From Pseudomonadota bacterium (lineage in GTDB: Bacteria; Pseudomonadota; Alphaproteobacteria; Rhizobiales; Xanthobacteraceae): a stretch of DNA of 64,000 nucleotides. The position numbers were made by a program, and so were the translations under genes. The notes beneath the pieces are model-generated. The model had not been told where the DNA came from. It was given only the letters and a program-made list of their open reading frames with translations, and searched no databases. Shown one piece after another: positions 17,475 through 46,430 of this stretch (the stretch's first letter is position 1; every line of letters begins with the position of its first letter). The stretch covers positions 1,518 through 65,517 of the forward strand of contig JAKAPE010000001.1 of the NCBI GenBank assembly GCA_021811945.1, given 5' to 3'.

Positions 17475-18719
17475 GTGCCGAGCCTTACCGATGGAGAAAT
17501 ACGCCGCGCTCTGAAGCAGGTGGAGCAGACGGGGAAGCAGCTAAGCCTCGTCGATGGAGAGGGACACGGCACCGGCCGTCTCGTTCTGGTCATGAAGCCC
17601 ATGCCCACCCGCATCACGGCGGACTGGATGGCGCAGCAGTGGCGCGATCAGAAGCGTCTGAAGAAGAAGCTCGGCTCGTACCCGTCAATGTCACTGAGCA
17701 AGGCGCGGGAGGTTTTCGCCCGCGACTTCGCCGACCTGATCCAGAAGGGCCGCAGCATCAAGATCGCCGGCGACACGCGGCCGGGCACGGTGGCCGACTT
17801 GTTCGAGGCTTACGTCCAATATCTGAAGGACGCGGAAAAGCCTTCGTGGAAGGAGACAGAGAAAGGCCTCAACAAGATCGCTGACGCCCTCGGCCGCAAC
17901 CGACCGGCACGCGAGATCGAGCCCGACGAAATCGTCGAGGTGATCCGGCCGATCTACGAACGCGGCAAGAAGGCGATGGCCGACCACGTCCGAAGCTACA
18001 TCCACGCTGCCTATAGCTGGGGCCTGAAGTCAGAGCACGATTATCGCAGCGCTTCCCAGCGCCGTTTCCGGCTCGTGTACAATCCCGCCGCCGGAATCCC
18101 GACAGAACCGAAGAAGGTCGGCACGCGCTGGCTCGACGAAGACGAGTTCGTTCGGCTCTACCGCTGGCTCGAAAACCCGGACGCACCCGTACATCCGCCC
18201 TATACGAGAGCCGTCCGCATACTCATGCTGACCGGTCAACGCGTGGAGGAGATTGCGCGTCTGCATGTCGACAACTGGGACGCCGAGGAGAAAATCATCG
18301 ACTGGTCGAAAACAAAGAACGGTGCTCCCCACGCGATTCCGGTGCCTCCCATCGCCGCGGAACTGATCGAATCGATCAAGCCGAACGAATACGGTTGGTT
18401 CTTCCCGTCAGCGAAGGATCCCAAGAGACCCGTCAGCCACGGGACGCTCTACAGCTTTATGTGGCGGCAGCGCGATCGCGGCGTCATCCCTGTCGTCACC
18501 AACCGCGATCTCCGCCGGACCTGGAAGACGCTCGCGGGCCAAGCTGGCGTTCCAAAAGAAATTCGCGATCGTATCCAAAACCACGCGTTGCAGGACGTAA
18601 GCTCGAAAAGCTACGACCGCTGGAACTACATGCGCGAGAAGCGAACCGGGATGGCCAAATGGGACAAGTTCGTCCGAGCGATGCTCGCGAAGAAGCGCCC
18701 TCTCAAGCTCGTCGCTTAG
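17475..18719 (+). CDS. int: Tyrosine-type site-specific recombinase/integrase
   Basis: Catalytic-domain pattern LMLTGQRVEEI (Arg I), ...HAIPV..., RDLRRTWKTLA (H-x-x-R region), NHALQDVSSKSYDRWNY (Tyr). GTG start at 17475. Confidence 0.9.
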   Translation: MPSLTDGEIRRALKQVEQTGKQLSLVDGEGHGTGRLVLVMKPMPTRITADWMAQQWRDQKRLKKKLGSYPSMSLSKAREVFARDFADLIQKGRSIKIAGDTRPGTVADLFEAYVQYLKDAEKPSWKETEKGLNKIADALGRNRPAREIEPDEIVEVIRPIYERGKKAMADHVRSYIHAAYSWGLKSEHDYRSASQRRFRLVYNPAAGIPTEPKKVGTRWLDEDEFVRLYRWLENPDAPVHPPYTRAVRILMLTGQRVEEIARLHVDNWDAEEKIIDWSKTKNGAPHAIPVPPIAAELIESIKPNEYGWFFPSAKDPKRPVSHGTLYSFMWRQRDRGVIPVVTNRDLRRTWKTLAGQAGVPKEIRDRIQNHALQDVSSKSYDRWNYMREKRTGMAKWDKFVRAMLAKKRPLKLVA

Positions 18720-18868: not shown

Positions 18869-19918
18869 GTGACGATCCAACACCCGATGCCGCTTTACCA
18901 CACGACGCTCTTCTCGAACGATCCGCCCGGCGAGGCCTTCGCCTCGCGCGGCGCAGCCTGGTCCTTCGAAAAGGAGCCGGGCGTCTACCGTGGGACCCCG
19001 AATGAGATACACGCCTATTCCATGAAACTATTCAAGCAACGCGGCCACGCGGCGACCGGCAACTACGGGTCGGATGACGTGCCCGTGTTCTTCGACATGG
19101 AGATTATGATCCGGGCACAGAAGCTGGCGCATGCGCAACAGGCTATGAACTTGCTGGTCTCGGCGATGGCCGCGCTCGAAGGTTCGATCACGTTTGGTCC
19201 GGAGCCATTCAGCATCGAGCCACGGGCGGTCGGCGCCGCGGCACCAACCACGTCCTACCTCAGCCGGAGCGGGTTTCTGGACGCCTGCGTACTTGCGAAC
19301 CGCGCCAGCCGAAAACGCTCGTCAAGCTACGCATTACATAAGCTTGCGCTAAGCTACCAGTCCTCCTCGCCGCACCTCATGGACCTCCACCCGAGTGAGT
19401 CGCCGAGGCGATTTCAAGTGCAAAGTGATCCGATCTACCACGTGTACGTCGCGAACGCCGTCACGCTCGCGTACTCTGCAATCGAGGAACTCGGCTTGGA
19501 GTTGCGGGCAAGTCAAAAGAATCCATCGAAGATGCCAGACGGCACATGGAATCCGGTCGTAAAGGCGGATCTCGAGGAACGGCTTCAAAAGTCGGGCATC
19601 GACCTGTCAGATACGCATATATGGACCCTACGCGGACCCAAGACACGCATCGAGAAAAAGCGTCCGCCGCCTTCCGCGGGAAAGCCGAGCTGGTCCCGCG
19701 GCAATGTGCGCGACGTGAATGTCTGGCTGATCGATGCACTGGCCCTCGCAAGCTGGTTGCGCAGTAGCACGACAACCCACCGTTTCTCTGATGCCGCGCG
19801 CAGCTTGACAGTCTACGACGCGCATAACGTCCAATCGCTCGCACGTCATCTCATCATGGAGAAGTTTGGCTTTTGGCAGGCGCGAAGCAAGGAGTCGTCG
19901 GCAAGGAAGGACGCCTAG
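18869..19918 (+). CDS. Hypothetical protein (349 aa), no family recognised
   Basis: Long ORF with ordinary amino-acid composition, convergent with the Ubl operon. GTG 18869 or ATG 18887. Contains R-x5-H (LRSSTTTHR) near the C-terminus. Confidence 0.55.
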   Translation: MTIQHPMPLYHTTLFSNDPPGEAFASRGAAWSFEKEPGVYRGTPNEIHAYSMKLFKQRGHAATGNYGSDDVPVFFDMEIMIRAQKLAHAQQAMNLLVSAMAALEGSITFGPEPFSIEPRAVGAAAPTTSYLSRSGFLDACVLANRASRKRSSSYALHKLALSYQSSSPHLMDLHPSESPRRFQVQSDPIYHVYVANAVTLAYSAIEELGLELRASQKNPSKMPDGTWNPVVKADLEERLQKSGIDLSDTHIWTLRGPKTRIEKKRPPPSAGKPSWSRGNVRDVNVWLIDALALASWLRSSTTTHRFSDAARSLTVYDAHNVQSLARHLIMEKFGFWQARSKESSARKDA

Positions 19919-19942: not shown

Positions 19943-20995
19943 TTAGCGCTTGGACGAATAGGGCGTCTTGGAAGGAAGGCCCAACGCGTTGACAAGCCTG
20001 TCGTCGTCTGTGTTGGGGGCGTTCAACAAGCCGAGGCTTGCCTTGGGCGGCGCAGGCGGCCAATGCGAGAGAAGACCCCCAACGCCGGGAGCAAGCGGCT
20101 TCTCGCCCAATCCGAGTGCTGAGAGCGCACCAAGACCGAGGTGCGGCTGGGAAGGAGTCGTTGTCCGCGGCCAGTCGCGAACCGTCACGCGCTGGATGGT
20201 CCAGCGCCCGTCCGCCGTGACGTCGATGCGCATTGAACCATCCTTGCGGGTCGTGGCCACGTACCGCCGTTCGTTTGTGACGAAGACCGCGCCAGCGCAT
20301 CGAGTCCGATACCAGTCGTCAGTATCCTGACTGTCGTATTGACGTTGGTCATCCGAGACGATGACAAGCTGCGGCCGGAACAATTCGAACAGTTCGGTGC
20401 AGCAACCGCTGTCCCGGCCATGATGTGAGGCGACGAGTACCGAGACGTTCAGCACGTCCTGGCGGAAATCCTGGAGCGCCAGCAAACGTCGCCAGCCCGC
20501 AACCTCAAGATCGCCCGTGAACAGGATCTTGAACGTGCCGAATTGGGCGATGACCGCGAGGCTGAGATCGTTGGTCTTGTTCTCGGCCCCAGGGACGAAG
20601 AAGGGATAGTACCAGCGGATTTGAACATCCCCGAAATCCGGCTGCGCTCCAGCCAATGGATTTTTCGGTTGGGCAAGCCAAGCCGCGACCGCTTGCGCGC
20701 CGGGTCCCATGCCATCCTTCTTGAGCATCGCGAACTCGCGCGGGCCGACAGTGGGATTGCTGAGAATCCAGGGGACCGTGCAGTCCTGCATCACGTTCTT
20801 GAAGTCGCTCAGGTGGTCCTCGTCGAGATTCATCAGGCCAAGCAGATCGACAGTCTCGCGGAAGAAATGGAGCGAAGGAGTCCAAAAGCGATCTTCACCC
20901 CAACGGTCGCCGCAATCGAGCATCATGCGTCGCCCGTTTGGCGCGGTGAGCATGGCGCATTGGCCGTGACCGACGTTGAAGATTTCAATCCGCAT
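19943..20995 (-). CDS. ComEC/Rec2-related metallo-beta-lactamase-fold hydrolase (copy 2)
   Basis: FNVGHGQCAML..MLDCG, FTGDLE, LVASHHGRDSG, which is the COG2333-like MBL pattern. The start overlaps the patatin stop by 11 nt. Confidence 0.78.
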   Translation of the reverse strand: MRIEIFNVGHGQCAMLTAPNGRRMMLDCGDRWGEDRFWTPSLHFFRETVDLLGLMNLDEDHLSDFKNVMQDCTVPWILSNPTVGPREFAMLKKDGMGPGAQAVAAWLAQPKNPLAGAQPDFGDVQIRWYYPFFVPGAENKTNDLSLAVIAQFGTFKILFTGDLEVAGWRRLLALQDFRQDVLNVSVLVASHHGRDSGCCTELFELFRPQLVIVSDDQRQYDSQDTDDWYRTRCAGAVFVTNERRYVATTRKDGSMRIDVTADGRWTIQRVTVRDWPRTTTPSQPHLGLGALSALGLGEKPLAPGVGGLLSHWPPAPPKASLGLLNAPNTDDDRLVNALGLPSKTPYSSKR

Positions 20996-22199
20996 CGAGA
21001 GTTTCCTCGGCGCAAGACGGGTCGTTGACGAGATGAGGCAGATAGCTGCGAGCCAGGCAGAAGGTCAGTTGCTCCCCGCGCAGGCCGAGGCGCTCTATCC
21101 ATTCCTCCGGCATCGCGTTGAAATCAGTCGGATAGGCGTGTGCTTCCTCGCGGCGCACGAGGTCCGCGGGCGGTTTCGGGAGCTGCCGGTCTTGTTGTCC
21201 AAGATACGGGAACAGGAAAGCTTTGATTTGCCCAGTCCGCTGCGCCTCGTGCAGCCGGTGCATGGCGGCGTTCTGGGCACGATCGAACACCGCGCTGAAG
21301 ACGCTGAGCATGCGCGCGAAGATAAACTGACCTGGCGGATCCTGCCGCAAGCCGTAGCCTGCCGAGCAGCAGATGATCGTGTCAACCGGAACTACGTTGA
21401 GGCTCACGTCCGGCGACCGGTCCGGCCAGAGACAGCCGAGGCCGAGATTGTCGTAGATGCCCCCGTCGGTCAGGATGACGCGGCTATCCTTGAGCGCTCC
21501 GTCCTTTTCGAAGGTCAGCGTCTCGTCGAACGCCGGGAGAAAGAGCGGATAGGCCGCCGAGGCGGCGACTGCGTGGGCCACCGACGCATCGTTGCGGTGT
21601 ATCTTGCCCCAGCGCCAAGATCCCGACTCCATGGTGCCGAAGCGGAACGCCGATCCGGTTCTCAGCTCTGTGGCGTTGATGACGAGATGCGGTTGTGCCG
21701 ACAGGTCCTTCAGGGACGCTCCCTTGAACAAGAGGTCGTCGAAGACCGCTTCGAGCAAGGTGGTCCGGCTCGCGAAGCGATGCAGCGGCGATCGGATCTC
21801 GAAGCGCTCGAAACGCGCCGCGAGCCCCGGGGGCGTGACCCAGCGCGCCACCTTGATCGCCATCTTGATCAAGGTGACGGCGAGCGCGACCAGTCCAATC
21901 ACCACGAAAGCGGCGGCGACCTTGATACCGGTCACGCTGAAAAGCTTGCGGTACATCGGCGCCACAAGTCCTTGGCGGAGCAAGTGGCGGATTTTCGCCT
22001 CGAAGGAGGCGAAGTCGCCGTGGTGGGCGTGGAAATAAGCACCAATTACGCTGCCGCCCGACACCGTCGAGAGAATGGCAACGTGATCGAGAAGTCCGAG
22101 CCGCTTAAGCGCGCGCAGACACCCGAGGTGAAACGCGATGGCGCGCGAGCCGCCGCCCGAGAGGGCGAGGCCGATCCTGGGGGCGACCGCCGCGTCCAT
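20985..22199 (-). CDS. Patatin-like phospholipase
   Basis: Oxyanion GLALSGGGSRAIAFHLG, nucleophile elbow STVSGGS, catalytic Asp LTDGGIYDNLG. A hydrophobic segment (VAAAFVVIGLVALAVTLI) sits mid-protein. Confidence 0.87.
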   Translation of the reverse strand: MDAAVAPRIGLALSGGGSRAIAFHLGCLRALKRLGLLDHVAILSTVSGGSVIGAYFHAHHGDFASFEAKIRHLLRQGLVAPMYRKLFSVTGIKVAAAFVVIGLVALAVTLIKMAIKVARWVTPPGLAARFERFEIRSPLHRFASRTTLLEAVFDDLLFKGASLKDLSAQPHLVINATELRTGSAFRFGTMESGSWRWGKIHRNDASVAHAVAASAAYPLFLPAFDETLTFEKDGALKDSRVILTDGGIYDNLGLGCLWPDRSPDVSLNVVPVDTIICCSAGYGLRQDPPGQFIFARMLSVFSAVFDRAQNAAMHRLHEAQRTGQIKAFLFPYLGQQDRQLPKPPADLVRREEAHAYPTDFNAMPEEWIERLGLRGEQLTFCLARSYLPHLVNDPSCAEETLDAD

Positions 22200-22212
22200 G
22201 CCGGGCCGCCGC

Positions 22213-23073
22213 TCAGGCCGCGGTGGCCGGCGCGTTGACAGACCTGATAAGGGTCGTCGTCAACTCTGTCGGTCCGGGCTGGGTCAAGAGCGACACGCCG
22301 CCCTCCATGTTGGTCGCAAAGACGTGCTTCGCCACGCGGCTATAGACTTGCAGCGCCTGCGGATGCGGGTGGCCGTACTGGCTATCGACGCCGGCACTGA
22401 TCAGAACCGTGTGCGGGGCGATGTTGACGAGCGACGCCGGATGCGTCGCGTTTTTCGAGCCGTGATGGGGTGCGGCGAGCACGTGTGCCTTCAGCGCGGT
22501 GCCGAAGAGCTTATTGATCCGGTCCCAGCGCGGATTCTCCGTGTCGCCGGTGATGAGGTAGGAGAAGCCGCGAGCACCGAGCCCTGTGAGTTTGAGCACG
22601 ATGCTGCAATTGTTGGAGCAGTCCATGTCCTCGATGTGCGGCGAGAAGAGTTCGAACTCGAACTTGCCCGAGAGGCCGGTCAAGCAGCGGTTGGCGAGTT
22701 GGTCGACGCGCACCGAGACCTTCCTCAAAGGATTGTTGGTTTGCCGGCGCGCCGCCTCCTCGGCATTGATGAGGGCGAAGACGCGCTTCGCCTCGTCGCT
22801 GTCCTTGTAGTATTTGGGGTACATGACCCAGTCCGGGCGGTACTTGCGCAGCACGATCGAGGCGCCCACGATCTCGCTGTGGTCGCTGTCGAAGCCGGTC
22901 AGAATGAGGCCCGTCACGCAATGGTCCTTCAGGGACAGCGCCATGATCTCCTTGACGTAGGCCACGGTGCTGTCATCGGCCGGCGGAATGCGGCAATCGA
23001 CGATGATGGCTTCCTTCTGGTGCCTCACGATCGCGAGCGCGCCTTGGCCGACATTGACCGTGATGATGTTCAT
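22213..23073 (-). CDS. ComEC/Rec2-related metallo-beta-lactamase-fold hydrolase (copy 1)
   Basis: MNIITVNVGQGALAIV..IVDC, ITGDTE, LAAPHHGSKNA. ATG 23073 lies 5 nt after the JAB stop. Confidence 0.78.
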   Translation of the reverse strand: MNIITVNVGQGALAIVRHQKEAIIVDCRIPPADDSTVAYVKEIMALSLKDHCVTGLILTGFDSDHSEIVGASIVLRKYRPDWVMYPKYYKDSDEAKRVFALINAEEAARRQTNNPLRKVSVRVDQLANRCLTGLSGKFEFELFSPHIEDMDCSNNCSIVLKLTGLGARGFSYLITGDTENPRWDRINKLFGTALKAHVLAAPHHGSKNATHPASLVNIAPHTVLISAGVDSQYGHPHPQALQVYSRVAKHVFATNMEGGVSLLTQPGPTELTTTLIRSVNAPATAA

Positions 23074-23078
23074 GCCCC

Positions 23079-23996
23079 TCACCCCTTCTTGCCGCGATAG
23101 AGCGCCTGGTTGAGATCGCGTTCGAGCTGCAGAACGGCGTGCCTCGCCGAGCGGAACTTGCGCGCCCGGTACTGCGTCAGGATGTCGGCGATGACCGGGT
23201 TCTTGCAGGACGTGGCGATCGAATAGGACCGCGCCTTGTCGTCGGGGTCCTCGATCGCCACCACCTCGGCGCGCGAGCCGTCGACCAACTGCAACGGCCC
23301 CTTCCAATAGGGCGCGCCGCTATCCTTGGAGAGCAACGCCTTGAGGCCCGGATAGAATTCGGCAAAGAACTCCTGATCCTTGGCGCGCTGCGGGTTGGCG
23401 GCGCCGGTCTGGGCAGGCTGCGGCGGAGGATCGCGCGGCTCCGCATTCTCGGCCATCGCGCGCGGGCGCAGAACGGGGGTATCGACGAGCCGCACGTCTT
23501 TCGCGAGAACCTCGTAGATCGTGTCGTCGCCGCGCCGGAAGATGAAGTGCTTCACGGCGTAGCGCGGGTTGCCGCCGCCGTTCTTGGTGACGACGAGCAG
23601 CGCGTAGAAGAAGTCGGTATTGTGATTCTCGTGGTTGACGGTCTTGAAGTAGGTCTGCTTGTCGCCGCCGCTCAAGGTCGGGTAGCCGTTGACGTGATGG
23701 GTGTGCCAGTTGCCGAGATGCTCGATTTCGGGGTGGCTGGCTTCGATAGCGCGGAATAGCTTTTCCTGGTGGTCGCCGTCCTGCAAGAAATAAGTCGACG
23801 TCCGTTGCGCGTTCGGCCCCGGCTCGAGCACGCCCTTGACCTCGATGTCGTAGCGCCCCTGGTCATGGCGGTAGGTGCCGAGAAGCCGGCCGCCGGTTTC
23901 ATCGACATCGTAGCGGTCGCACTCGTCGAACACGGCTTCGAGCGCGCCGCGCGCGATCGAGATCGAGAACACCGGCTTTTTCGATCTAAACAGCAT
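23079..23996 (-). CDS. JAB/MPN (JAMM) metallopeptidase with a C-terminal extension of about 150 aa
   Basis: Complete JAMM signature: E (DVDETGGRLLG) ... HTHHVNGYPTLSGGD (H-x-H-x7-S-x2-D). The start overlaps the E1 stop by 11 nt. Confidence 0.85.
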   Translation of the reverse strand: MLFRSKKPVFSISIARGALEAVFDECDRYDVDETGGRLLGTYRHDQGRYDIEVKGVLEPGPNAQRTSTYFLQDGDHQEKLFRAIEASHPEIEHLGNWHTHHVNGYPTLSGGDKQTYFKTVNHENHNTDFFYALLVVTKNGGGNPRYAVKHFIFRRGDDTIYEVLAKDVRLVDTPVLRPRAMAENAEPRDPPPQPAQTGAANPQRAKDQEFFAEFYPGLKALLSKDSGAPYWKGPLQLVDGSRAEVVAIEDPDDKARSYSIATSCKNPVIADILTQYRARKFRSARHAVLQLERDLNQALYRGKKG

Positions 23997-24858
23997 GGGC
24001 CGTGCTCCTCGTGGCGCAGACCGCACACTGCTCCTGCGGGCTGAGCGCGGTGCGTTGCAGGTGAAAATGCTTATTGAAGGGATGGACAGGCCGGTTGCCC
24101 CAGATCAGGTAGTTCTCGTCGATAGGATCGAGGAATTTGGGACGCTCGCCGAGGCGCCTCGCGACGGCGTCGAGGACAAACCGGGTGTGGAACGAGGTGA
24201 TGAAGGTGATGTCCACCGTGAGGCCAGGCGAGTCCTTGATCTCGGCGATCTCCATGCCATAGACCTTCTCGCGCTCCTCGTCGGAGACGAGGTCGATCTC
24301 GCGGATGCCTTGCCGGAAGGGCGTGCGCTGCAACGCCGCTTCGAGGCAGGCGAGGCAGGCGCCCTCTGGCGGACGGTAGGCGAAGACTTCGCCGCCGATG
24401 CCGCGGGTGAACACACGGCCGACCACGAACGGAACGCCGTGGCGGATGCACATCTCGTTGATGGTGTAGCGGGTCGGCTCGTTATCGGTGGCGAGCACCA
24501 CCACGTCGGCCTTCACGATCTCGGCGGCGAGGCCGGGATAGTTCATGATGTCCGCGTCGATCTTGGCGATGCTGGCGTTCGGGTTGCGGTCGTGCAGCAC
24601 GTCGGCGACGGCGTCGGTTTTCTTCTGGCCGATGTAGCGGCGGCCGCAGACATGCCGGATGACGTTCTCCGGCCCGAGGATGTCGTTGTCGATCAGCGTG
24701 AAGTTGCGGATGCCGGACATGACGAGCTGGAGCGCGACGCTGGCGCCACCGGAGCCGCAGCCCGCGATGAGGACGTTCACGTTGGCGAAGGCGGCAATGT
24801 CGAACAGCGTCTCGATGCGTTCGAAGGTGCGGTCGGTCATGGCGCGGTCAGTCATCAT
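23986..24858 (-). CDS. ThiF/MoeB/E1-like adenylyltransferase
   Basis: Rossmann motif VLIAGCGSGGASVALQLVMSGI..TLIDNDIL, conserved R/D adenylation residues, and two CxxC pairs (CLAC ... CAVC) as in the ThiF/MoeB zinc site. The ATG overlaps the upstream TGA (ATGA). Confidence 0.87.
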   Translation of the reverse strand: MMTDRAMTDRTFERIETLFDIAAFANVNVLIAGCGSGGASVALQLVMSGIRNFTLIDNDILGPENVIRHVCGRRYIGQKKTDAVADVLHDRNPNASIAKIDADIMNYPGLAAEIVKADVVVLATDNEPTRYTINEMCIRHGVPFVVGRVFTRGIGGEVFAYRPPEGACLACLEAALQRTPFRQGIREIDLVSDEEREKVYGMEIAEIKDSPGLTVDITFITSFHTRFVLDAVARRLGERPKFLDPIDENYLIWGNRPVHPFNKHFHLQRTALSPQEQCAVCATRSTAHAV

Positions 24859-25382
24859 GCATCCGTCCTTTCCGGCCATTCGCCGGTCTTGCACCACTTG
24901 GCGTAGTGTTTGAGCCAGACCCGTGCGAGGCCGAGAGCGTGGCTGACGTCGTGGGTCTTGACGTTCCAAGCCGTCGTCGCGCCGAAGATCGAGAGCGCGC
25001 CGTCCGGCCAGCGCTGCGGGGCGTTGGACGCGACCTGCGCGGCGTAAATCCGCGGCGCGGAATTGGGGTAGCCATGCGGCAGCACGATGCTGACGATGAT
25101 GTTCTCGCCGGCGGCTGTTTCCGGGCAACTGATCTCTAGTTCTTTGCTCTCATTGATCGTGAGCTTGTAGCTCTCCTTCTTGCCGTCGAGCTTGGCGAGC
25201 TCTTTGGCGATGCGGTCGGGGGCGATGTCCGGCAGCAAGAAGGAGACCGGCACGAGGCAGGCCTTTGGCTGGCCGTTGCGCTCGACGACGAAGACCTCGC
25301 CGTCCCGCGCCACGCGGTCGAGAACCTCGCCCGGGGAGCTGCGCAGCTCCATCATCTTCAAGGTCTTGAAATCGACTTTCAA
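24855..25382 (-). CDS. Phd/YefM-like N-terminal domain fused to an E2-variant (UEV-like) domain
   Basis: The N-terminus ELRSSPGEVLDRVARDGEVFVVERNGQPKACLVP resembles Phd/YefM antitoxins. The C-terminus LPHGYPNSAPRIYA...DGALSIFG...W is paralogous to the neighbouring E2 but has Ser where the E2 Cys sits. Start is TTG 25382 or ATG 25355. Confidence 0.6.
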   Translation of the reverse strand: MKVDFKTLKMMELRSSPGEVLDRVARDGEVFVVERNGQPKACLVPVSFLLPDIAPDRIAKELAKLDGKKESYKLTINESKELEISCPETAAGENIIVSIVLPHGYPNSAPRIYAAQVASNAPQRWPDGALSIFGATTAWNVKTHDVSHALGLARVWLKHYAKWCKTGEWPERTDA

Positions 25383-25392
25383 AGGCCGCCCC

Positions 25393-25773
25393 TCAGTGCC
25401 TGATCTCGGCGCCTGGCCAGGTGCCGCCGTTGTTGCGCCAGACCTCGTATTTGTTGAGCCACTTCGCGGCGCGGCCGATGACGAAAGTCAGGTGATGGAC
25501 GCCCGGGTTCCACATCGTCGGATGCAGGTAACAGATGTGCCCGCCCTGATACCGGTGCGGCGCATGGGTGATGGTCGGCGCGTCGATGAACACGCGCGGC
25601 ATCTCGTTCGGATAGTTGTCAGGGAATTTGATCGAGAGCACATACTGTCGGCCGTTCGAGGTCTGCAGCGCCGCACGGGCATAGACCTTGCCGTCGAGCG
25701 TCGGCTGCAGCTCGACGAGCGCGAAGGTCCGCTGTGCCTCGGCGAATTCGCGGTGGATGCGAGCGATGTCCAT
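25393..25773 (-). CDS. E2 (UBC)-like protein with candidate catalytic Cys
   Basis: FPDNYPNEMPRVFI....HAPH...GGHICYLHPTMWNP parallels the eukaryotic E2 pattern FP..YP..PP.v.F...i.HPN....G.ICL..L...W.P. Confidence 0.65.
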   Translation of the reverse strand: MDIARIHREFAEAQRTFALVELQPTLDGKVYARAALQTSNGRQYVLSIKFPDNYPNEMPRVFIDAPTITHAPHRYQGGHICYLHPTMWNPGVHHLTFVIGRAAKWLNKYEVWRNNGGTWPGAEIRH

Positions 25774-25781
25774 CGCGGGCC

Positions 25782-25955
25782 TCAATACTCGCCGCCGAGG
25801 TTTTCTTTCATCGTCAGCGGCTTCTTGTTGCCGAGCTCGGACGACGTGGTCTGACCGATCTGTCGAATCTCGCCGTTCGGCAGGATCTGGATCGGGATGT
25901 CCTCCTCGCTGTTAAGGAGCCGCTCCAGCTCGTCGATTTTGGACTGTTGGCTCAT
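25782..25955 (-). CDS. 57-aa protein ending ...ENLGGEY; candidate ubiquitin-like modifier/tag
   Basis: Strong RBS (GGAGGGAAGGA-ATG). First gene of the operon. The C-terminal Gly-Gly is followed by two residues. The stop lies 8 nt before the E2 start. Confidence 0.5.
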   Translation of the reverse strand: MSQQSKIDELERLLNSEEDIPIQILPNGEIRQIGQTTSSELGNKKPLTMKENLGGEY

Positions 25956-26004
25956 TCCTTCCCTCCAAGGGCACGACACGACTCACGAGCTAATACAATT
26001 GCAC

Positions 26005-26032
26005 ACCCTACAACGGTTGCGCATAGAGTCAA
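26005..26032 (-). promoter_or_regulatory. Possible sigma70-type promoter of the Ubl operon (TTGACT-N16-TAGGGT)
   Basis: Minus-strand TTGACT (26032-26027) and TAGGGT (26010-26005), about 50 nt upstream of ATG 25955. Pattern match only. Confidence 0.25.
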
Positions 26033-26202
26033 TTTAAGATTTGGGGGGGGCGGGCGCTGATGGCTACCAGATAGGGGGGGTGCGGATCCGCCGCCAGCCG
26101 TAAGCGCGAAACTTGTTCCGGCCGGGAACTTGCGCCAAGGCACCGGAGTGCGCTCGGTTTGAGTATTGTTCTCGCGGCGGCGGGACGAACGAATGTCTGG
26201 CC

Positions 26203-26623: not shown

Positions 26624-29600
26624 TTAGGAGACGGCCAACGTGGAATTCACCATCTCGAGATAGCGGCAGAACGCGTTCGCCAACTGAATCTGCCGCGGCG
26701 TCCGGCACTCCGTTTCGAATATCTGCGGTGAGCCGACGAGGACCGATACGCATTTGGCGCGCGAAGTCGCAACATTGAGCCGGTTGAGGCTGTAGAGGAA
26801 CTCCATTCCGCGCGGCGCGTCCGCATGGCTGGAAGTGGCCATCGAATAAACTGCGATCGGAGCTTCCTGCCCCTGGAACTTGTCGACCGTGCCCACGCGC
26901 GCACCCGACAGGCATTGCTGAATCTCGAAGACCTGCGCGTTGTAGGGCGTGATGATAACGATGTCGTCGAGCGTGATCGGCTTCTCTTGCCCTTCGCGAT
27001 CGACCCAAGTCGCCTTGCTCGCGAGGATCGCCCGCACGAGACGCGCGACCGCTTGTGCCTCTTCAGGCGAGCAGTTCTGATTGCCGCTGTGTGCGACAGG
27101 GAGAAGGTAGAGACCAGACCCGCTGACCGGTCCGGACCCTTTGATGACCAGCTTCTCTAGCCCGGTCTTCGAGCGGAGCTTGCCGTCATAGAAGACCTCG
27201 GAGGTGTAGGCGCAGATCGCAGGATGCAGCCGCCAGGTCTCTTCGAGAAACAGGCCCTTATCCGCAGAAATCGTCCGCTCGCCGCCGAGAATATGATCGA
27301 GCGCCGACACATCGGTGCCCTCCGGGTGGCTGCCTTGCATCGGCTGATCGAGTTGCTGCGGATCGCCGATCAGCACCACCGTCTTCGCCGCCTGCGACAC
27401 GGCAAGCACGTTGGCGAGCGACATCTGCGCGGCTTCGTCCACGAAGAGAACGTCGACCGTCTCGAACGTGTCCGGCCGCGACCACAGCCATGCCGTGCCG
27501 CCGCCGACCGAGGCGCCGCCGCTCAATGCCGCGAACAAGTCCTCATTTCTCTTGGCGAAGAAAAGGCGATGCTGCGGGTCTTCGACCTCATCGGCCTTTT
27601 GGCAGCATTGCAGGTCGATTCCCAATTCGTCGGCCGCCTTGATCGTCGCATCGATCAGGTTGCGAATGACCTTATGACTGTTGGCCGTGATGCCAACTTT
27701 CTTCCCACGGCGCACCAGCTCGCAAATCATCTGCGCACCAGTGAAGGTCTTGCCCGCACCGGGCGGTCCTTGGATCGGGAGAACGCCGCCCGCCACGTGG
27801 CCGCACAGCCGAACGGCGGCTTCAACCGTCGTCTCTCCGGCGCGGTGCAGCGGCTCATCGCCGACGCGCGGGCTTCCTCTGAGCAGGAGATCGCGCGCCG
27901 CCTGATAAGGCCCATCGCCCCGTACGCCGTGATCGGCGACATAGTCGCCGATCCGCACCAGCGCCTCGGCCATCACTTGGCCGCCAACATAGCTGTGGGC
28001 GAACGCGGCTTGCGGATGGAGGCTGGCGGTATCCTGGCGCTTCTTGATATCGACGGTGTTGTCTGCAAAGGAGATCACCTCGACCTTGCCGAGTTTGGCG
28101 CCGCCGAGATTGCAGAGTTCCTCGCCGCCGCGAATTTCGGTCTCCTGCGGCGGGAAACGGTAACGATGGATCGGCGCCTTGGCTGTGCCGCCGGCCGTGG
28201 CGGCAAAGATAAGACCGGAGAGTCCGGCGCGCTCCTCGAGTAGATCCTCGGCCGAGAGAGCGGCCAGCCGGAAATACTCCCACCACACCGCCTTCTCTTC
28301 CCGGCGATGCCAATCAACAATGTTTGCCAAGATCCAACGGGCCTGCTGCTCCTCATTCCGTTCGGTGGGATCCACCGGAACATCCGCCGTCAGTCTTTCG
28401 ATTAGCGCATTGATCTTGACCAGCCAGTCGGTGATCTTCTCGTTCGGCGCACCGTCACCAGGTTGCGGTCGAGGCACGACTGTTCCATCAGCGACCAGCT
28501 TCGTCCGGTGCGCTTCGAGCCAGTCGCGCAAGACCACGGTGGAACGGCAATCATCCTCGTTGTAGGCGCGCACCACTGCCTTGGTCTCTTCGGCAATTGA
28601 CGGCGCATCGCTGAGCTCGATATTGGCCTGGAGATTGGCGAGCGCGACATTCGCATCGGTCAGTGGCGTTTGACGTTCGAAGCCATAGAGGGGCTCCAAC
28701 CGCTTGATCGAATAGCTTTCGACGCTTGCACGAAGACTATGGCGCACGACTTGATAGAGATCGACGAAGAGGCCGGCGCGGAGCATCCGGTCGATCTCCT
28801 CCTCGCGCGTCGCGTAGCGGCCCATCAGGCGCTTCAGGGCCGCCGGCTCATAGGGAGCGTAGTGGTAGACGTGCAGGCCGGGGAACAGAGCCCACCGCGT
28901 CATCACAAAATCGACGAACTTTTCAAAGGCGCGCTTCTCGTCGGCGCGGGTGAAAGCCCAGTCGCCCTCGTAGACGAGCGCGCCGTGTGCGTCCTTGAAC
29001 AGATAGCCGACCAGATATTCGAGGCCATGCTCGCCGACAAATGGATCGCCTTCGAAGTCAAGAAACACATCGCCATCAGAAGGCTCGGGCAGACGGGTGA
29101 GCCCGAAGCCGGTCTCCACCGGCAGCAGCTCGAATATGCGAGTCCCTGCTGTGCGGGCCTCGACCACGATCCGCGCCTGCTCGCGGATGCGGATATAGGA
29201 ATCGGCCGAACCGCGATCGGGCTTCCACTCGAGCGGCAAGGGCATGCCGGCCAAACCTTGTACCGTCGCGACATCGCGTGCCTTCAACTCATTGATCTGA
29301 ATCTTCGAGATGCCGGCAACGAGGCAGAGATGATCGTCATCGCGGCGACGCTTGTCGCAAGCCTCTCGCCAACGGCAGATATCGCAATGCTCGATTGGAT
29401 CGGGGTAGGTGTCATCTGTCGCCGGCGCGGCCATGGCCGTCAGCAACCCGCGCTTCACCTTTCGGAAATACGCCGCATAGTCGGCGAAGCGATATTGCTG
29501 CGGCTGAAATTCCGACCACGGCGCGACGACGTACATGTATTCGGGCGGAAGTCCCTGCATGGCGGCCAGCAGGTCGGCGTAGAGACAGAGCTGGAGGATC

Positions 29601-30031
29601 GTTCCGGCTTTCGTTTCGCGTGCGAGCTTCGTGTCGACCGGCTCATAGGACCAGCCGCCCAGCGCGCTCGGTACTTCGACGCGGCGCAGGATGTCGGCGC
29701 GTCCGTTCCAGCCCTGATGCGCGAGTGCTGCCTGAGCGATGACCGGAACACCGCGCTGCATGATGGCGCGCGTCTCAGCGACGGCCCCGTGCGTGACTTC
29801 GACACCGTCGATCCGCACGGCGTCCAGCCCTGCGGTGGTGAGGTGCTCTATGTAACTCTGCTCATGGGCTATCCCGCGTTCGGCCAAGATCTGCAGAAGG
29901 GGGTCCCAGACCTTCGGCTTCGATAACGCCCCGTTGGCCACCGCGCGGTCCAGACCCGTGAGATGATGACAATTCAGGTAGCCGACTAAGTCGGTCGCGC
30001 TGAGCTCGAAGGACTCTCCGACCTTTTTCAT
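26624..30031 (-). CDS. RecB/Cas4-like nuclease + RNaseH-like domain (TM0106-type) fused to an SF1 (DNA2/Upf1-like) helicase, 1135 aa
   Basis: N-terminus has GRADIL...YEPVDTKL (PD-(D/E)xK) with [10 protein letters not shown], then DFEGDP (RNaseH-like). C-terminus has [38 protein letters not shown] helicase motifs. Confidence 0.88.
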
Positions 30032-30939
30032 GTGGTTTGAAAGCTTAGGTCGCGCACGGGAATGTACGCGCGGTTAGTTTCAGCAGCACGGCGCGCCTTT
30101 TCCTCGAGCACTGCAATGAGCGAAACGCGCCGCGATAGCACCTCATACAAATCCAGCCCGTCGACGCAGATGAGGTTCGTCTGACGGCCACGGCTGAATG
30201 CCTCCAGGCCCTCCTGGGTGAATCCTGAGTTGCTGACAAATAGGCCGCGCGCCCACGCCGCCTTGCCCGAGACTTTGCCCGAAAACGCCATCAGGTCGGC
30301 AAACCCAATCTGTGGCCCATGCCACTTGGCTTCGACCAGGTAGGTTTCCGTGTGCAGCCGAAAGCTCCCGTCAATCTGCTCTCCCACGATACGGAAGGAA
30401 CCACGGGGCGCCAGACCGAATGCGGCAAATATATCCGAGAGAAAACTTTCAAACCTCAGGCCTCTTTCTTGTGGGCTTAGGTTCGATATCTCGATCAAGC
30501 GCGCAATCAACGTCTGAGCGGCCGCCTCTGCCAACATTGGCTCGGGCGCAGTGCGTTCAGTCTTCGGCGGCTCGCCGAAGGTCTTCAAGAAGGCTGGATC
30601 GAGAAGCTCCGGAATCCTGAAAGACACGCCCGGCAGCGCCGCGTTCAATCGATCAATTTCATCGCGAGTCAGCGGATTACCCTTGCCCCGGCGCCAAGTC
30701 ATCGATTGGTGGACGATGGCGATCATCAACGGTGTGAAACGGTTCCGGCGATATTCCAGCGTTCGCTTCAGGAGCTCGACAATTGCCGGCCGCTTACTCC
30801 CAGAAGTCCAGAACTCACCGACACCGGCTTGGGCAGCAGCAAGCGGAAAAGCAGTCTTGTTATTGCCGCTTCCTGGCAGGAACTCATAGAGAATATCTGC
30901 GATATTCTCGATGGCCTGCGCTTCCGCGAGCGACAACAT
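30028..30939 (-). CDS. Mrr-like restriction endonuclease domain protein with an unknown N-terminal domain
   Basis: C-terminal half [12 protein letters not shown]...GEQIDGSF...YLVEAKW...[10 protein letters not shown] fits the Mrr_cat PD-(D/E)xK pattern. The stop overlaps the helicase ATG (ATGA). Confidence 0.72.
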
Positions 30940-30942
30940 AGC

Positions 30943-32055
30943 TCAGTCCTCCGACGAAACGAGTCTGAGCGGTGGCCGCGAGCGGCTTCGATCGCCGCTG
31001 TTGGGAATACCGTTGAGGCTGGTCAACGCCAAGCCGAACACTAGTTCATCAATATCTTTGGGGTGGACACGCAGCGCCTCTGCGACCTCCTCCTTGCTGA
31101 TTCCTTCCTTTCGGAGCGCCGCGAACACCTTTTGCAGCACCTGCGAGATCTCACGGGGCCCGCCCTCCGGCTCTTTTTTACGGAACCCACGCGACGACAT
31201 CTCGATATAGAGCTGGCGATAGTGCCATTCAGACAGAAGATCGAGTTTATGGAGCCGGTACGTCATCGCCGCCAGTGATACGCCCCAAACCTTTTTGAGC
31301 CGCATGAGATTGTCGATGGTGGCAAAGCGCGGCGCGTGGGCACGCACACTGGCTGGCGGCATCAGCAATGCGGACGCGAACGCGTTGGCATCCTGCTCGG
31401 CCTCCTGACCATTCGGCGCGGCGTGCCGATGCAGAACCAAATGTCCCAGCTCGTGGGCGGCATCGAACCGTCCATGCTCGGCCGACTTGAGCGTGTTGAG
31501 AAAGACAAAGGGGCGATCTCCTCGCCACATGGAGAATGCGTCAACCTCAGCAGCATCAATGGCGAGTGAGTAGACGCGCACGCCTTTCGACTCGAGCAGA
31601 TGCACCATGTTTTTGATCGGCAGTTCTCCCAACTCCCACGCACGACGTACCGCCGCCGCCGCCGTTTCGGGACTTGCATCACGACCGAGATCTGGCAATT
31701 GGGGCGCGGGCAAATCGAAGCGCGTTTCGATCCATTCGTTGAGCAGCATTGCCACAGCGCCGTTACCGAGCGCGGTGTCGCGTTGGCGCGCCGTCATCTT
31801 CGACAAAGACCGAAAGCTCGCCGTGTCGATCGCCGGCTCCTCGATATCGTCACCAAAGAAAAACGCCTGCGGAAAGTTCAGCGTGCGAGCAATGGTCGCC
31901 AACCGCTCAGGCTCCGGATTAAACTCACCCGTCTCGTAGGCTGAAACCGATCGCAACTCTACGCCGATACTCGCGGCGAGGCGGGTCTTGGTTAGTCCGC
32001 GTCTCCGACGAGCCCAGGTAAGGCGGGTGGGATTGAAGGCATCAACGACTGTCAT
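30943..32055 (-). CDS. XRE-family HTH fused to an ImmA/IrrE (COG2856) zinc metallopeptidase
   Basis: N-terminal HTH (RRGLTKTRLAASIGVELRSVSAYETGE) and HELGHLVLH (HExxH) in the central domain. Confidence 0.87.
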   Translation of the reverse strand: MTVVDAFNPTRLTWARRRRGLTKTRLAASIGVELRSVSAYETGEFNPEPERLATIARTLNFPQAFFFGDDIEEPAIDTASFRSLSKMTARQRDTALGNGAVAMLLNEWIETRFDLPAPQLPDLGRDASPETAAAAVRRAWELGELPIKNMVHLLESKGVRVYSLAIDAAEVDAFSMWRGDRPFVFLNTLKSAEHGRFDAAHELGHLVLHRHAAPNGQEAEQDANAFASALLMPPASVRAHAPRFATIDNLMRLKKVWGVSLAAMTYRLHKLDLLSEWHYRQLYIEMSSRGFRKKEPEGGPREISQVLQKVFAALRKEGISKEEVAEALRVHPKDIDELVFGLALTSLNGIPNSGDRSRSRPPLRLVSSED

Positions 32056-32696
32056 GCCTTTCGCTTCACATCGATATCGAGATCCGGCCCCACGGGCGCC
32101 ACGATTTCAACCTCGGCGCCGTCCAACGGGATCGATGGCAGCATGATGCGTTCCTGCCAGCGCGTGATCCGGCCGTCCGCCGAAATCTGCGACGGCAAGG
32201 ACAGTTCGCAACGCACCTCAGAGCCGGCACGGTGGAGAAGCAAAAACCAGGTCAGCGGACCCTCATCGCCCCGCACATGCGGCATGTCAGGAACCGGCAA
32301 ATCCAATTCGAGCTGCACCTGATTTACCGAGATGGCGTCTGCCGTGCTAACGCCCTTCGGCGCCCGGTTGCTGACATTGGCGGTTGGGATCCCCGTCCCC
32401 ATGTCGCCGGAAGCAATATTGATCGCCATCGACCCATCAGGGTGGATCACCAGGGCGTAGTTCTTCTCGTCTGACCGCGTCCAGCCAAGCGGCAGCAAAC
32501 CTTCCCGCAGCGCCGCAACTGCTTCCATCCAAGCCGCAATGCCGATGGCGAAGGGCGGGTGATTTATGGTGAAGCTTACCCAGGACAAATACCAACGCTG
32601 CGCCGCGTGCGCGAGAGGCTCATCGGTCAGCCCCATGGCGGCCAACCGGGCCTTCACGTCATCGGCATCTATGTACACGGACAGGGGCGCAGCCAC
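32052..32696 (-). CDS. Hypothetical protein (214 aa), first gene of the XRE-ImmA/Mrr/helicase operon
   Basis: GTG 32696 is preceded by GGAGAA. The stop overlaps the next start by 4 nt. No motif was recognised. Confidence 0.55.
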   Translation of the reverse strand: MAAPLSVYIDADDVKARLAAMGLTDEPLAHAAQRWYLSWVSFTINHPPFAIGIAAWMEAVAALREGLLPLGWTRSDEKNYALVIHPDGSMAINIASGDMGTGIPTANVSNRAPKGVSTADAISVNQVQLELDLPVPDMPHVRGDEGPLTWFLLLHRAGSEVRCELSLPSQISADGRITRWQERIMLPSIPLDGAEVEIVAPVGPDLDIDVKRKA

Positions 32697-35800: not shown

Positions 35801-35853
35801 GCCTCAATCGCCGCCTCCTGATAATCAAGGTCGGGCTCAAAGTGCAGCTTCAT
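32824..35853 (-). CDS. res: Type III restriction enzyme, Res subunit (SF2 helicase + C-terminal PD-(D/E)xK)
   Basis: METGTGKTYVY (motif I), ILIVDEPQS (DExQ), QTIGRGLR (motif VI), and C-terminal PDWAVL...VVETKG endonuclease motif. ATG 35853 is preceded by GAGG. Confidence 0.9.
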   Translation of the reverse strand: MKLHFEPDLDYQEAAIEAVAGLFRGQEINRTEFTVIRRPMAERTGQTDLDLGAFLGPQGELGLVESELGIGNRLTLLDDEIMANLKDIQLRNGLAPSTALTSGDFTVEMETGTGKTYVYLRTIFELNKLYGFTKFVIVVPSVAIKEGVYKTLQITEEHFRGLYSGQPFDYFLYDSTKLGQVRNFATNPNIQIMVVTVGAINKKDVNNLYKDSEKTGGERPIDLIRATRPILIVDEPQSVDGGLSGAGKNALGEMNPLCTLRYSATHVDKHHMVFRLDAVDAYERKLVKQIEVASLEVEGGHNKAYVRFVSASNGKGPVTARVEIDVLESKQVRRKEVVVQDGDDLEELTKRAIYADCRIGEIRAGRDSQLLEVKLPGSETFLQPGQAVGDVDADALKRLMLRRTIHEHLEKEKRLAPLGIKVLSLFFIDAVEHYRSYDADGNPVKGKYARIFEEEYRRAAKLPEFVSLFKEVDLTSEAEEVHDGYFSIDKARHWTDTADNTQSARDNAERAYNLIMKDKEKLLGFETKLKFIFSHSALKEGWDNPNVFQICALREIGTERERRQTIGRGLRLCVNQKGERLRGFDINTLTVIATESYEEFAENLQKEIEKDTGIKFGIVEKHQFAAIPIVKADGSTGMLGFEESAAIFDHLRSQGFVDAKGKVQDTLRTALKDGSFALPPAPAPHLASVRDVLKKVAGKLDIKNADERVVVKTRQAILESAEFQALWDRIKHKTTYRVHFDNEKLIADCAKAIANGPPVSKARVRIRKADLSIGQGGVEATEHDKNSGTIVTIEEGDIVLPDVLTDLQDRTQLTRKSLVRVLTECGRLTDFKRNPQAFIEIAGEVINRTKRLAIVDGIKYQRIGDEYYYAQELFSQEELTGYLRNMLKDAQKSVFEHVVYDSGGVERTFAEQLEKNEAVRIYAKLPAWFKVPTPLGTYNPDWAVLIEVSGEERLYFVVETKGSMFVDDLRDNEAAKIACGEAHFQALAVGKNPARYIKARNVDDVMDRL

Positions 35854-35863
35854 CGAACAGGCC

Positions 35864-42803: not shown

Positions 42804-43006
42804 TTCTCGTGGCCCCTCCGGACACCGGTCGGTGCCGGTGGCTGATGGGAAGCCTGAGGCGAGCCATCGATGAATTGTCGAATCGCTTGTCGGATGACCC
42901 ACGAAACCGAAGCATCTTGCGCCAACGCGATCTCAGTCAGGGTTCGATAGTCCTGCTCTTCCAAGCTCACCGTCAGCCGTGTTGCCTTGCGAGGGCGCTC
43001 GTTCAT
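42800..43006 (-). CDS. Ribbon-helix-helix (CopG/MetJ-type) DNA-binding protein
   Basis: RLTVSLEEQDYRTLTEIALAQDASVSWVIRQAIRQFI is a classic RHH pattern. RBS is GGGGAG. It is translationally coupled to the SNF2 gene. Confidence 0.8.
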   Translation of the reverse strand: MNERPRKATRLTVSLEEQDYRTLTEIALAQDASVSWVIRQAIRQFIDGSPQASHQPPAPTGVRRGHEK

Positions 43007-45019: not shown

Positions 45020-45305
45020 GTCAGTCAATGATTCTGCTCTAGATTAGCAAATTATTTGCCCTTACAGAGCATATTTGTCAACTCTTCTTCGATAGGAAGG
45101 GGGAACCACGAGCATCGCCTCGGTCCCGAAAAATGTATCGTAGCGGGCAGGAATTACCCTTTTCGGTACACTTTCGCAAACCACCGATGGGCCGCGACGC
45201 CCATTGGGGGAAAGCCTTCCCCTGCGGCCGAGCCTGTAGTCTCGGCCGACCCCTTCTGCGGGGACACCCCGCAACGCCCCGAGAGTGAGAGTGCGGACGG
45301 GTTTT

Positions 45306-46316: not shown

Positions 46317-46430
46317 TGCGCTTTCGGTCGCGACAGTGAGCAAGCCGTCACGCGAAGACGGATTTGTGCGGATGCGCATCTCCGGCTCGCCGCAAATCCG
46401 GCGTTCCAGAGGAAGAGGGCTGCGCCGGTC

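Follow-up and report, generated by a model that had tools for sequence, protein, structure and literature searches.

A widespread, unnamed operon of separate E1, E2 and JAB genes with a free glycine-tailed protein is a relative of 6A-MBL and a candidate anti-phage system

We analyzed an eight-gene operon at positions 19943-26080, minus strand, of a 64,000-nucleotide stretch of contig JAKAPE010000001.1 (assembly GCA_021811945.1, Alphaproteobacteria, Xanthobacteraceae; hereafter, the window). The gene set is a real, widespread and unnamed defence-type operon and a relative of 6A-MBL, a system that combines E2, E1 and JAB enzymes with a specialised MBL-fold protein. The control of an MBL by E1, E2 and JAB enzymes, with patatin or transmembrane (TM) effectors, is already known; new here are a free tag whose model is not a beta-grasp, dual canonical-type E2s, a Phd fusion and a cysteine-less E1. 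On balance we favour the reading that the operon is an anti-phage or anti-mobile-element system, a split sister of 6A-MBL and type II CBASS that works through a tag-conjugation switch. Its parts, all on the minus strand of the window, are as follows.

25989-26032, minus strand: putative promoter/operator, with TTGACT at 26027-26032, a 16-nt spacer, TAGGGT at 26005-26010, then GTGCAATTGTATTA at 25991-26004
25961-25966, minus strand: ribosome-binding site GGAGGG, upstream of the mini gene
25782-25955, minus strand: mini-tag candidate (mini), 57 amino acids (aa), MSQQSK...KKPLTMKENLGGEY, ending LGGEY
25393-25785, minus strand: E2 (UBC-like), 130 aa from a TTG start or 126 aa from an ATG start; matches CBASS E2 models and a UBC profile
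24855-25382, minus strand: Phd/YefM domain fused to a second E2 (E2'), 175 aa; TIGR01552, then an E2 paralogue
23986-24858, minus strand: E1, a minimal ThiF/MoeB-type adenylating enzyme, 290 aa; Pfam ThiF
23079-23996, minus strand: JAB/JAMM peptidase with an extra C-terminal domain, 305 aa; PADLOC JAB and AlphaFold2 model
22213-23073, minus strand: MBL1, core MBL-fold protein, 286 aa; 6A-MBL homologue
20985-22199, minus strand: patatin-like phospholipase, 404 aa, occupant of the effector slot; Pfam Patatin
19943-20995, minus strand: MBL2, accessory MBL-fold protein, 350 aa; PADLOC PDC-M48B family

All eight open reading frames (ORFs) lie where the initial annotation had placed them, and public gene calls agree with their products of 57, 126, 175, 290, 305, 286, 404 and 350 aa (DAHVMC010000029.1, metagenome-assembled genome (MAG) GCA_027320025.1). 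The genes are packed as it had described, with overlaps of 4-11 nt and gaps of 5-13 nt: a 4-nt overlap (TTG start) or an 8-nt gap (conserved ATG start) between mini and E2, a 10-nt gap between E2 and Phd-E2', a 4-nt overlap between Phd-E2' and E1, an 11-nt overlap between E1 and JAB, a 5-nt gap between JAB and MBL1, a 13-nt gap between MBL1 and patatin, and an 11-nt overlap between patatin and MBL2. No terminator-like site was found on the minus strand within the eight-gene operon.

A scan of one genome per species yielded 75 loci (numbered L003, L006 and so on where they must be told apart). The carriers span at least a dozen phyla and belong to Alpha- and Gammaproteobacteria, Acidobacteriota, Verrucomicrobiota, Planctomycetota, Gemmatimonadota, Nitrospirota, Elusimicrobiota, Binatia, Eremiobacterota, Armatimonadota and Myxococcota; nearly all are soil or peat MAGs. 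In tblastn searches with the eight window proteins, the order mini, E2, Phd-E2', E1, JAB, MBL1 was fixed in ~70 loci, essentially all of those with room for the genes; three loci lack mini, two or three lack E2', and a single locus is degraded. Because the same order recurs in about 70 loci, the six-gene arrangement is far beyond chance. The eight-gene order given in the initial annotation therefore holds for these six core genes, but patatin and MBL2 are not fixed. Two carriers are cultured: Mesorhizobium sp. AR10, with seven of the genes on plasmid pMspAR10a, and Bradyrhizobium genosp. A BDV5028, with all eight on the chromosome; RefSeq gives their proteins only generic names. We found no name, model, rule or paper for the gene set in NCBIfam (June 2026), PADLOC 2.0, Pfam, RefSeq annotation or the full-text literature, of which few subscription journals were covered, and the view that the system was undescribed has held to that extent.

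The 57-aa mini protein is encoded directly upstream of E2 in ~66 of the 69 loci that have room for its gene. It is conserved along its whole length, with a near-invariant PLTM[RKQ]E[ND]LGGEY at the end; the LGGEY tail is invariant and is the only invariant GG-type tail encoded in the operon. In roughly half of the copies, EY is followed by a variable tail that is 2-12 or more residues long, and an invariant LGGEY followed by a variable extension is the pattern that would be expected of a processed pro-tag. Relatives fall into 445 clusters in a large protein collection, none of them informatively named. AlphaFold2 models mini as a helix (residues 2-14), a hairpin (22-32) and a flexible tail, with a pLDDT of 71. 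Foldseek with this model returned nothing better than E 0.7, and a profile search against solved structures gave only a chance-level match (E 0.2). Because the model consists of helix, hairpin and flexible tail and has no Foldseek match, we infer that mini, which we propose to be a dedicated tag, is not a beta-grasp fold. When mini and the C-terminal tails of 6A MBLs were compared profile to profile, no relationship emerged (0.2% probability).

Both E2s are related to ubiquitin-conjugating enzymes. The first, for which the conserved ATG at 25773 (126 aa) is a likelier start than the TTG at 25785, matches PADLOC models of stand-alone CBASS E2s down to 2e-11 and Pfam UQ_con at 2.2e-5 (under the curated cut-off), and a profile of 22 E2 sequences aligns to eukaryotic UBCs over the active site (UBE2W, 7.5e-5). 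Precomputed Pfam annotation assigns it to PF26395 (E2-CBASS), and E2' weakly so. Its motif is GHICYL...WNP, and Y58-P59...P63, H77, C85 and W92-N93-P94 are invariant in 71 sequences. E2' combines an N-terminal domain that scores 24.7 bits against TIGR01552 (phd_fam, cut-off 20.8), and 27.4 bits, just below the cut-off of 29.8, against Pfam PF02604, with a C-terminal half paralogous to E2 (tblastn E about 1e-10), whose profile likewise matches UBCs. The family is small, with 105 representatives at 50% clustering. At the catalytic position, 52 of 70 orthologues have Cys and 14, which make up the window's clade, have Ser; the other 4 have Gly, Ala or Gln. Because Cys prevails in 52/70 orthologues, E2' is, as far as its alignment tells, not ancestrally dead; the Ser-type E2' of the window may be a pseudo-E2 or, by analogy with the Bub E2, an oxyester-forming enzyme. 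The resemblance to a Phd/YefM type II toxin-antitoxin module stops at the antitoxin N-terminal domain, for in Phd-E2' the C-terminal toxin-binding tail is replaced by the E2 fold, and none of the eight proteins matched a Doc/YoeB-type or other toxin family in Pfam, PADLOC or NCBIfam.

The E1 has a single ThiF domain (Pfam ThiF, 4.1e-31) and matches the PADLOC CBASS E1-E2 model over the full E1 domain (6.5e-31); its best solved relatives are MoeB, MccB and ThiF. The adenylation and zinc motifs are kept, with GCGSGG, R68, D125, C168xxC171 and C278xxC281 all invariant, and there is neither a conserved Cys in the crossover region (173-216) nor a Cys domain. The JAB matches PADLOC JAB (1e-16), has 1567 relatives in the large protein collection, and keeps E33, H98, H100, S109 and D112 invariant in 74 sequences. 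Its AlphaFold2 model matches MPN/JAMM structures, Cap3 among them; it carries an extra C-terminal domain and scores 30.3 bits against the Cap3 equivalog, for which the cut-off is 200.

The initial annotation had read these five genes as a complete ubiquitin-like kit. The conjugation and deconjugation enzymes bear this out, but the model of the tag is not a ubiquitin fold, and of the two AlphaFold2 models searched with Foldseek, only that of JAB found a structural match. Most of the motifs it had listed are present as given: the LGGEY end of the 57-aa protein, GHICYL...WNP in E2 (H77, C85 and WNP being invariant in all 71 orthologues), and GCGSGG with both CxxC pairs in E1. It had named as refuting a finding that the E2s are not UBC folds or that the E1 has no adenylation site; both E2s have profile matches to UBCs, and the E1 motifs are invariant. 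Two details changed: the Cys-to-Ser replacement in the E2 paralogue is a feature of the window's clade and not of the family, and the JAB signature is intact with 8 residues, not 7, between His and Ser.

MBL1 is present in essentially every locus with room for it, and the gene after it varies, so on its distribution MBL1 is a core gene rather than an accessory effector. Profile comparison shows its homology to the MBL of 6A-MBL (hhalign 95%, E 4e-8, 232 columns). T59-G60-x-D62-x-D64-H65, H146, D177 and H203-H204 are invariant in MBL1, and the invariant Gly corresponds to the first His in the TH-x-D-x-DH metal motif of 6A MBLs. MBL1 C-termini are unconserved and without a terminal Gly in 69 orthologues, whereas true 6A MBLs in the same loci end ..PRAG, ..YGRG or ..GFG plus 0-3 residues. 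Since MBL1 lacks the Gly tail that 6A MBLs keep, the simplest reading of the alignments would be that the conjugatable C-terminus moved from the MBL to a separate gene, mini. In one locus (L071, 10900-12777) MBL1 is in two pieces ~1 kb apart with a 321-aa ORF between them, probably an insertion.

We took a census of the next co-oriented gene after MBL1 in 70 loci.

Patatin, at least two subfamilies: 20 loci (22 with two that ORF picking missed and tblastn found)
Multi-TM protein, 213-325 aa, several unrelated families: 17 loci
Complete 6A-MBL system with a patatin after it or fused to it: 12 loci
Another MBL: 2 loci
Something else: 8 loci
None: 11 loci

The position after MBL1 thus holds an exchangeable, mostly membrane-acting cassette, of which the patatin and MBL2 of the window are one example, and a core with an exchangeable membrane cassette is the usual abortive-infection layout. 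The window's patatin (Pfam Patatin, 7.6e-16) has the motifs GGGSR, TVSGG and TDGG and a hydrophobic segment at residues 85-121; orthologues of it follow MBL1 only in close alphaproteobacterial relatives and a few others. MBL2 matches PADLOC PDLC04674 (candidate-system protein PDC-M48B) at 4.8e-55 and accompanies the split system only in the window, L009 and L010 (3 of ~70 loci). The initial annotation had taken the last three genes for effectors, two ComEC-type MBLs flanking a patatin. Both MBLs do give ComEC-type matches, under the curated cut-offs of NCBIfam, and they flank the patatin; patatin, and with it MBL2, occupies the effector slot, but MBL1 belongs to the invariant core.

Sub-cut-off matches to two NCBIfam models had pointed to 6A-MBL. 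Against the fusion model NF058523 (cut-off 320 bits), E1 scores 59.7 and JAB 46.3 bits, and against the MBL model NF058524 (cut-off 220 bits), MBL1 scores 35.3 and MBL2 22.7 bits; true members of NF058523 in L047 and L006 score 629-644 bits. The complete 6A-MBL systems that follow the core in some loci pass both models (MBL 403 bits, cut-off 220; fusion 349-644 bits, cut-off 320). Such a tandem of 6A-MBL and patatin lies right after the core in L035, L047, L049, L054, L056, L057, L061, L064, L066, L073, L077 and L080, at about 11.8-16.5 kb, and several of these E2-E1-JAB proteins are fused to patatin (1136-1181 aa). A DNA search of plasmids, in which patatin gave the only DNA-level match, led to the operon of L006, on the Bradyrhizobium barranii conjugative plasmid NZ_CP049702.1 (4746-12583), where the gene after a genuine 6A-MBL pair (409 and 629 bits) encodes a patatin that shares 81% identity with the window's. 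A second patatin-family gene, 825 aa, lies just past this one. On two further plasmids, of Sphingobium baderi (L083) and Agrobacterium tumefaciens (L084), a gene of the MBL2 type (PDC-M48B) is located downstream of those for a 6A-type E2-E1-JAB fusion and a 4-TM protein; the Sphingobium fusion is preceded by an annotated metallohydrolase. In seven split-system loci, the 4-TM proteins after MBL1 share 30-38% identity with the plasmid one (E down to 4e-43). On these comparisons PDC-M48 may be an effector cassette of such systems and not a free-standing system. Because the split system and 6A-MBL draw on a common effector pool (patatin, 4-TM protein, PDC-M48B MBL) and have homologous MBLs, the two systems are sisters.

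Phages carry a single gene of the system. In a scan of IMG/VR, four viral contigs (L085-L088) encoded a stand-alone JAB of about 160-180 aa that has no C-terminal domain. Its identity to the 74 bacterial catalytic domains is 44-59% throughout, as high as that between distant bacterial members. The gene lies between those for the terminase large subunit and a portal/adaptor protein in L087 (7989-8480), adjoins the terminase gene in L088 (8001-8510) and is found at 6346-7074 in L086. No other gene of the system was found on the four viral contigs, and no stand-alone JAB in the GenBank phage collection. The sequences and their setting would fit a captured counter-defence deconjugase; if phages use it against the system, conjugation would be the arming step.

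Upstream of the mini gene, comparison of loci L003-L081 revealed in many of them the layout TTGACA, N16-17, TAGNCT, GTGCAATTGTATTA. The last element is often an inverted repeat, TGCAATT...AATTGCA, and 33 of 69 upstream regions contain TGCAAT, compared with 3.5% of 100-nt windows taken at random. In a second clade, 2-4 GC[AG][CT]GA repeats take the place of the GTGCAATTGTATTA element. The repeat type goes with a variant of the Phd domain, being found in 14 of 16 loci with Thr11 and in 3 of 49 with Met11 (Fisher p = 1e-9, kinship ignored), and the two loci without Phd-E2' show neither motif type. The Phd domain is also the sole DNA-binding candidate encoded in the operon. From these patterns, 25989-26032 probably serves as promoter and operator, with the Phd domain as the repressor that acts there. 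A consensus promoter scan found none in this region, because its -10 rule rejects TAGGGT, and the site is visible by locus comparison only; no notable inverted repeats were found in the 750 nt upstream of the operon in the window.

We propose that JAB, or else an E2, cuts the tail of mini, with Gly55 as the likeliest new end, which would remove EY and any variable tail. An E1 dimer would then adenylate Gly55 and, because this E1 has no crossover-loop Cys, the acyl group would pass straight from the E1 adenylate to Cys85 of E2. E2 would attach the tag to a target, for which MBL1, the effector, a phage protein and E2 itself are candidates, with the Phd-fused E2' as a second carrier or an adaptor. 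Tagging would activate MBL1 and a membrane-damaging effector (patatin or 4-TM protein), so that infection is aborted; JAB would reverse the tagging, and the Phd domain would repress the operon at the conserved operator. The view of the initial annotation that conjugation of the tag licenses or restrains the effectors is likewise a hypothesis. A bolder form of this proposal, which we put forward only tentatively and regard as rather improbable in all its parts, holds that mini is a free-standing "mini-ubiquitin": a non-beta-grasp tag, served by a cysteine-less E1 and canonical-type E2s, that arose when the Gly tail of a CD-NTase or MBL became a gene of its own. In this form the tag would arm membrane effectors through attachment to MBL1, the effector, a phage protein or a lipid (as Atg8 does), phage JABs would counter it, and the Phd-E2 fusion would couple conjugation to transcription.

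Several points weigh against a tag-conjugation switch. The proposal is a reading of sequence throughout, in conjugation, cleavage site, targets and phenotype alike. The model of mini is of moderate confidence, with a shallow alignment in which most members are >77% identical. The invariance of EY is unexpected if these residues are merely cut off, and the mature end could be Tyr57. Not every locus has all the parts: mini is missing from three and E2' from two or three. The activity of MBL1 is uncertain, given the Gly in its metal motif, and 11 of 70 loci have no gene in the effector slot, so that either the system can do without an effector or MBL1 acts as one. Finally, the statistic for the co-variation of operator and Phd domain ignores shared ancestry.

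The main rival, which we consider unlikely while ranking it above the three lesser ones, is a self-adduct switch like that of E2-CBASS. In this explanation the tag would sit covalently on E2 or E2', as a thioester or a Lys isopeptide, and would itself be the switch; E1 and JAB would set the level of charged E2, and infection would shift the balance and release MBL1 and the effector. E2-CBASS, the short form of type II (PMC12948482), offers a precedent: the C-terminal ~47 residues of its clade-G CD-NTase, CdnG, form a helix, a three-stranded sheet and a conserved Gly and recruit a stand-alone E2, which removes the residues past the Gly and covalently links itself to this appendage without an E1. 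That stand-alone E2 mimics human UbcH5B (PMC12948482). The E2 of our operon is likewise stand-alone and canonical-UBC-like and belongs to the same family, PF26395; mini, with helix, small sheet and Gly tail, is comparable in layout to the CdnG appendage, and the operon encodes two E2 paralogues and no E3 or substrate-recognition protein. The layout of mini is an analogy only, however, since no sequence or fold match between mini and the CdnG appendage was detected. E2-CBASS also differs in that its module is the C-terminus of a cyclase and in that it works without E1 or JAB, whereas here a free protein is accompanied by JAB, a second E2 and an E1 that is always present with intact adenylation motifs.

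It is also improbable, and more so, that the operon joins two units, a six-gene core and a separate co-transcribed defence cassette made of patatin and MBL2 or of patatin alone. An orthologue of the window's patatin and MBL2 are missing from most loci, MBL2 matches a protein of a separate PADLOC candidate (PDC-M48B), and defence genes cluster in any case. Yet the start and stop codons at the junctions concerned overlap by 11 nt or are 13 nt apart, ~59 of 70 loci have a gene in the slot after MBL1, for a membrane-acting protein in most cases, and the same three effector families follow 6A-type E2-E1-JAB genes, sometimes as fusions of 1136-1181 aa.

We give little credence to an arrangement in which the MBL is conjugated through its own C-terminus and the 57-aa protein is a regulator, decoy or inhibitor. 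It would agree with the literature view that Cap2-type enzymes conjugate their signalling enzyme, and MBL1 is homologous to the 6A MBL; the tails speak otherwise, the C-termini of the 69 MBL1 orthologues being unconserved and without the terminal Gly that 6A MBLs keep, and the sole invariant GG-type tail belonging to mini. Least credible of all is a ribosomal peptide natural product, with the 57-aa protein as the precursor, ThiF-like activation as in MccB or PaaA, and JAB and the MBLs as processing enzymes: MccB is among the closest solved relatives of E1, and mini is a short peptide with a conserved C-terminal core, but such a pathway has no role for two UBC-fold E2s with invariant Cys, His and WNP, no exporter or immunity gene is present, and the defence-island setting, exchangeable membrane effectors and phage-borne JABs point elsewhere.

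The operon lies in a defence island beside an integrase, as the initial annotation had said when it placed it in such an island on a mobile element. The neighbouring genes are listed here.

17475-18719, plus strand: tyrosine integrase, adjoining the operon, with RadC beyond
18869-19918, plus strand: 349-aa ORF converging on MBL2; no family match, found only in the source contig
26624-30031, minus strand: helicase-nuclease, 1135 aa, Cas4/RecB-like nuclease at the N-terminus and SF1 helicase at the C-terminus; MkoA (Mokosh) model, 1.6e-40
30028-30939, minus strand: Mrr, defence island
30943-32055, minus strand: HTH-M78 peptidase fusion, defence island
32052-32696, minus strand: 214-aa ORF, no Pfam match
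32824-35892, minus strand: type III restriction enzyme, paired with the methylase
35864-37789, minus strand: type III methylase, paired with the restriction enzyme
37817-38812, minus strand: HNH protein, defence island
38809-42902, minus strand: DUF4391 protein and SNF2 helicase, defence island
43179-45028, minus strand: AbiEii/AbiEi toxin-antitoxin pair, defence island
45078-47996, minus strand: 972-aa ORF, no Pfam match

G+C falls to 0.53-0.59 over 30-44 kb, and a search for attachment sites found no tRNA gene in the window. Two neighbours were considered as parts of the system and set aside: the 349-aa ORF at 18869-19918, which is not conserved with the system, and the helicase-nuclease at 26624-30031, which has only generic SF1 motifs in common with the helicases that follow MBL1 in L036, L072 and L079.

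If the proposed switch is right, bacterial E1/E2 chemistry could dispense with the ubiquitin fold and make do with a helix, a hairpin and an LGG tail. The operon would offer a version of the poorly understood MBL pathway that is compact, soluble and open to genetic separation, a candidate viral "deubiquitinase" for counter-defence in phages and, in the Phd-E2 fusion, a possible direct link between conjugation and transcription. The cultured carriers, Mesorhizobium sp. AR10 and Bradyrhizobium BDV5028, make these ideas testable.

Among known tagging systems, Pup is comparable to mini: each is a small, largely disordered protein of ~60 aa whose GG-containing C-terminus is followed by Glu. Pup is ligated through the side chain of that Glu by PafA/Dop, enzymes of the glutamine-synthetase fold; none of the eight proteins is a PafA/Dop homologue by Pfam, and E1, E2 and JAB enzymes are encoded instead. 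Bil and Bub resemble the operon in their separate tag, E2, E1 and JAB genes, in the pre-processing of the tag by JAB, which has been shown for the ubiquitin-like proteins (Ubls) of both, and in their defence-island setting. Their tags are beta-grasp Ubls, whereas mini is not a beta-grasp in its model (of moderate confidence), and neither system has a core MBL or patatin/TM effectors. The Bil E1 consists of an inactive and an active adenylation domain and a Cys domain, against a single ThiF domain of 290 aa here; Bub has a Ser-type E2 and the BubE (DUF6527) protease, whereas here the Cys of E2 is invariant and none of the eight proteins has a BubE/DUF6527 match in Pfam.

The likeness to type II CBASS lies in the E1 and JAB, which are closest to CBASS models (6.5e-31 and 1e-16), in the patatin and TM effectors and in the logic of reversible conjugation. 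E1 and E2 are fused there as Cap2, whereas here they are separate and mini is a separate substrate, and none of the eight proteins matched a cyclase or nucleotidyltransferase model in Pfam, PADLOC or NCBIfam, in keeping with the initial annotation, which had seen no CD-NTase. The E2 of Cap2, which is Atg3/Atg10-like, lacks the canonical hallmarks YPxxxP, a His 8 residues before the Cys and W-N-P (Ledvina et al.), all of which are present in both E2 and E2'. The crossover-loop Cys of the Cap2 E1 has no conserved equivalent in the E1 of the operon; in Cap2 this Cys proved dispensable in vitro (C548A mutant), where the E2 Cys can take over, a precedent for transfer straight from the adenylate to the E2 (Ledvina et al.).

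The nearest known system is 6A-MBL. The initial annotation had compared the operon with type II CBASS and Bil and had missed this one, which is nearer and already links E1, E2 and JAB to an MBL and, in relatives, to the same patatin family. Operon class 6a was described by Iyer, Burroughs and Aravind (2006; PMC1779556) as an E2-E1-JAB triple fusion beside a specialised MBL, and later papers cite 6A-MBL as a validated anti-phage (jumbo-phage) system of Pseudomonas aeruginosa, the primary report as cited there being van den Berg et al. (2024). [quoted passage not shown] The operon and 6A-MBL have in common the E2, E1 and JAB chemistry with a specialised MBL, and the effector families. They differ in that E2, E1 and JAB are separate here and are joined by a Phd-fused second E2 and the 57-aa GG-tailed protein, in that the E2 of the split system is canonical-UBC-like, and in that MBL1 is ~90 residues shorter and without the conserved Gly tail of the 6A MBL. 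Were the proposed switch correct, the operon would stand between systems whose conjugated tail belongs to an enzyme (type II CBASS, 6A-MBL) and those with a separate Ubl (Bil, Bub, eukaryotic ubiquitin), and would bear on the origin of free ubiquitin-like tags.

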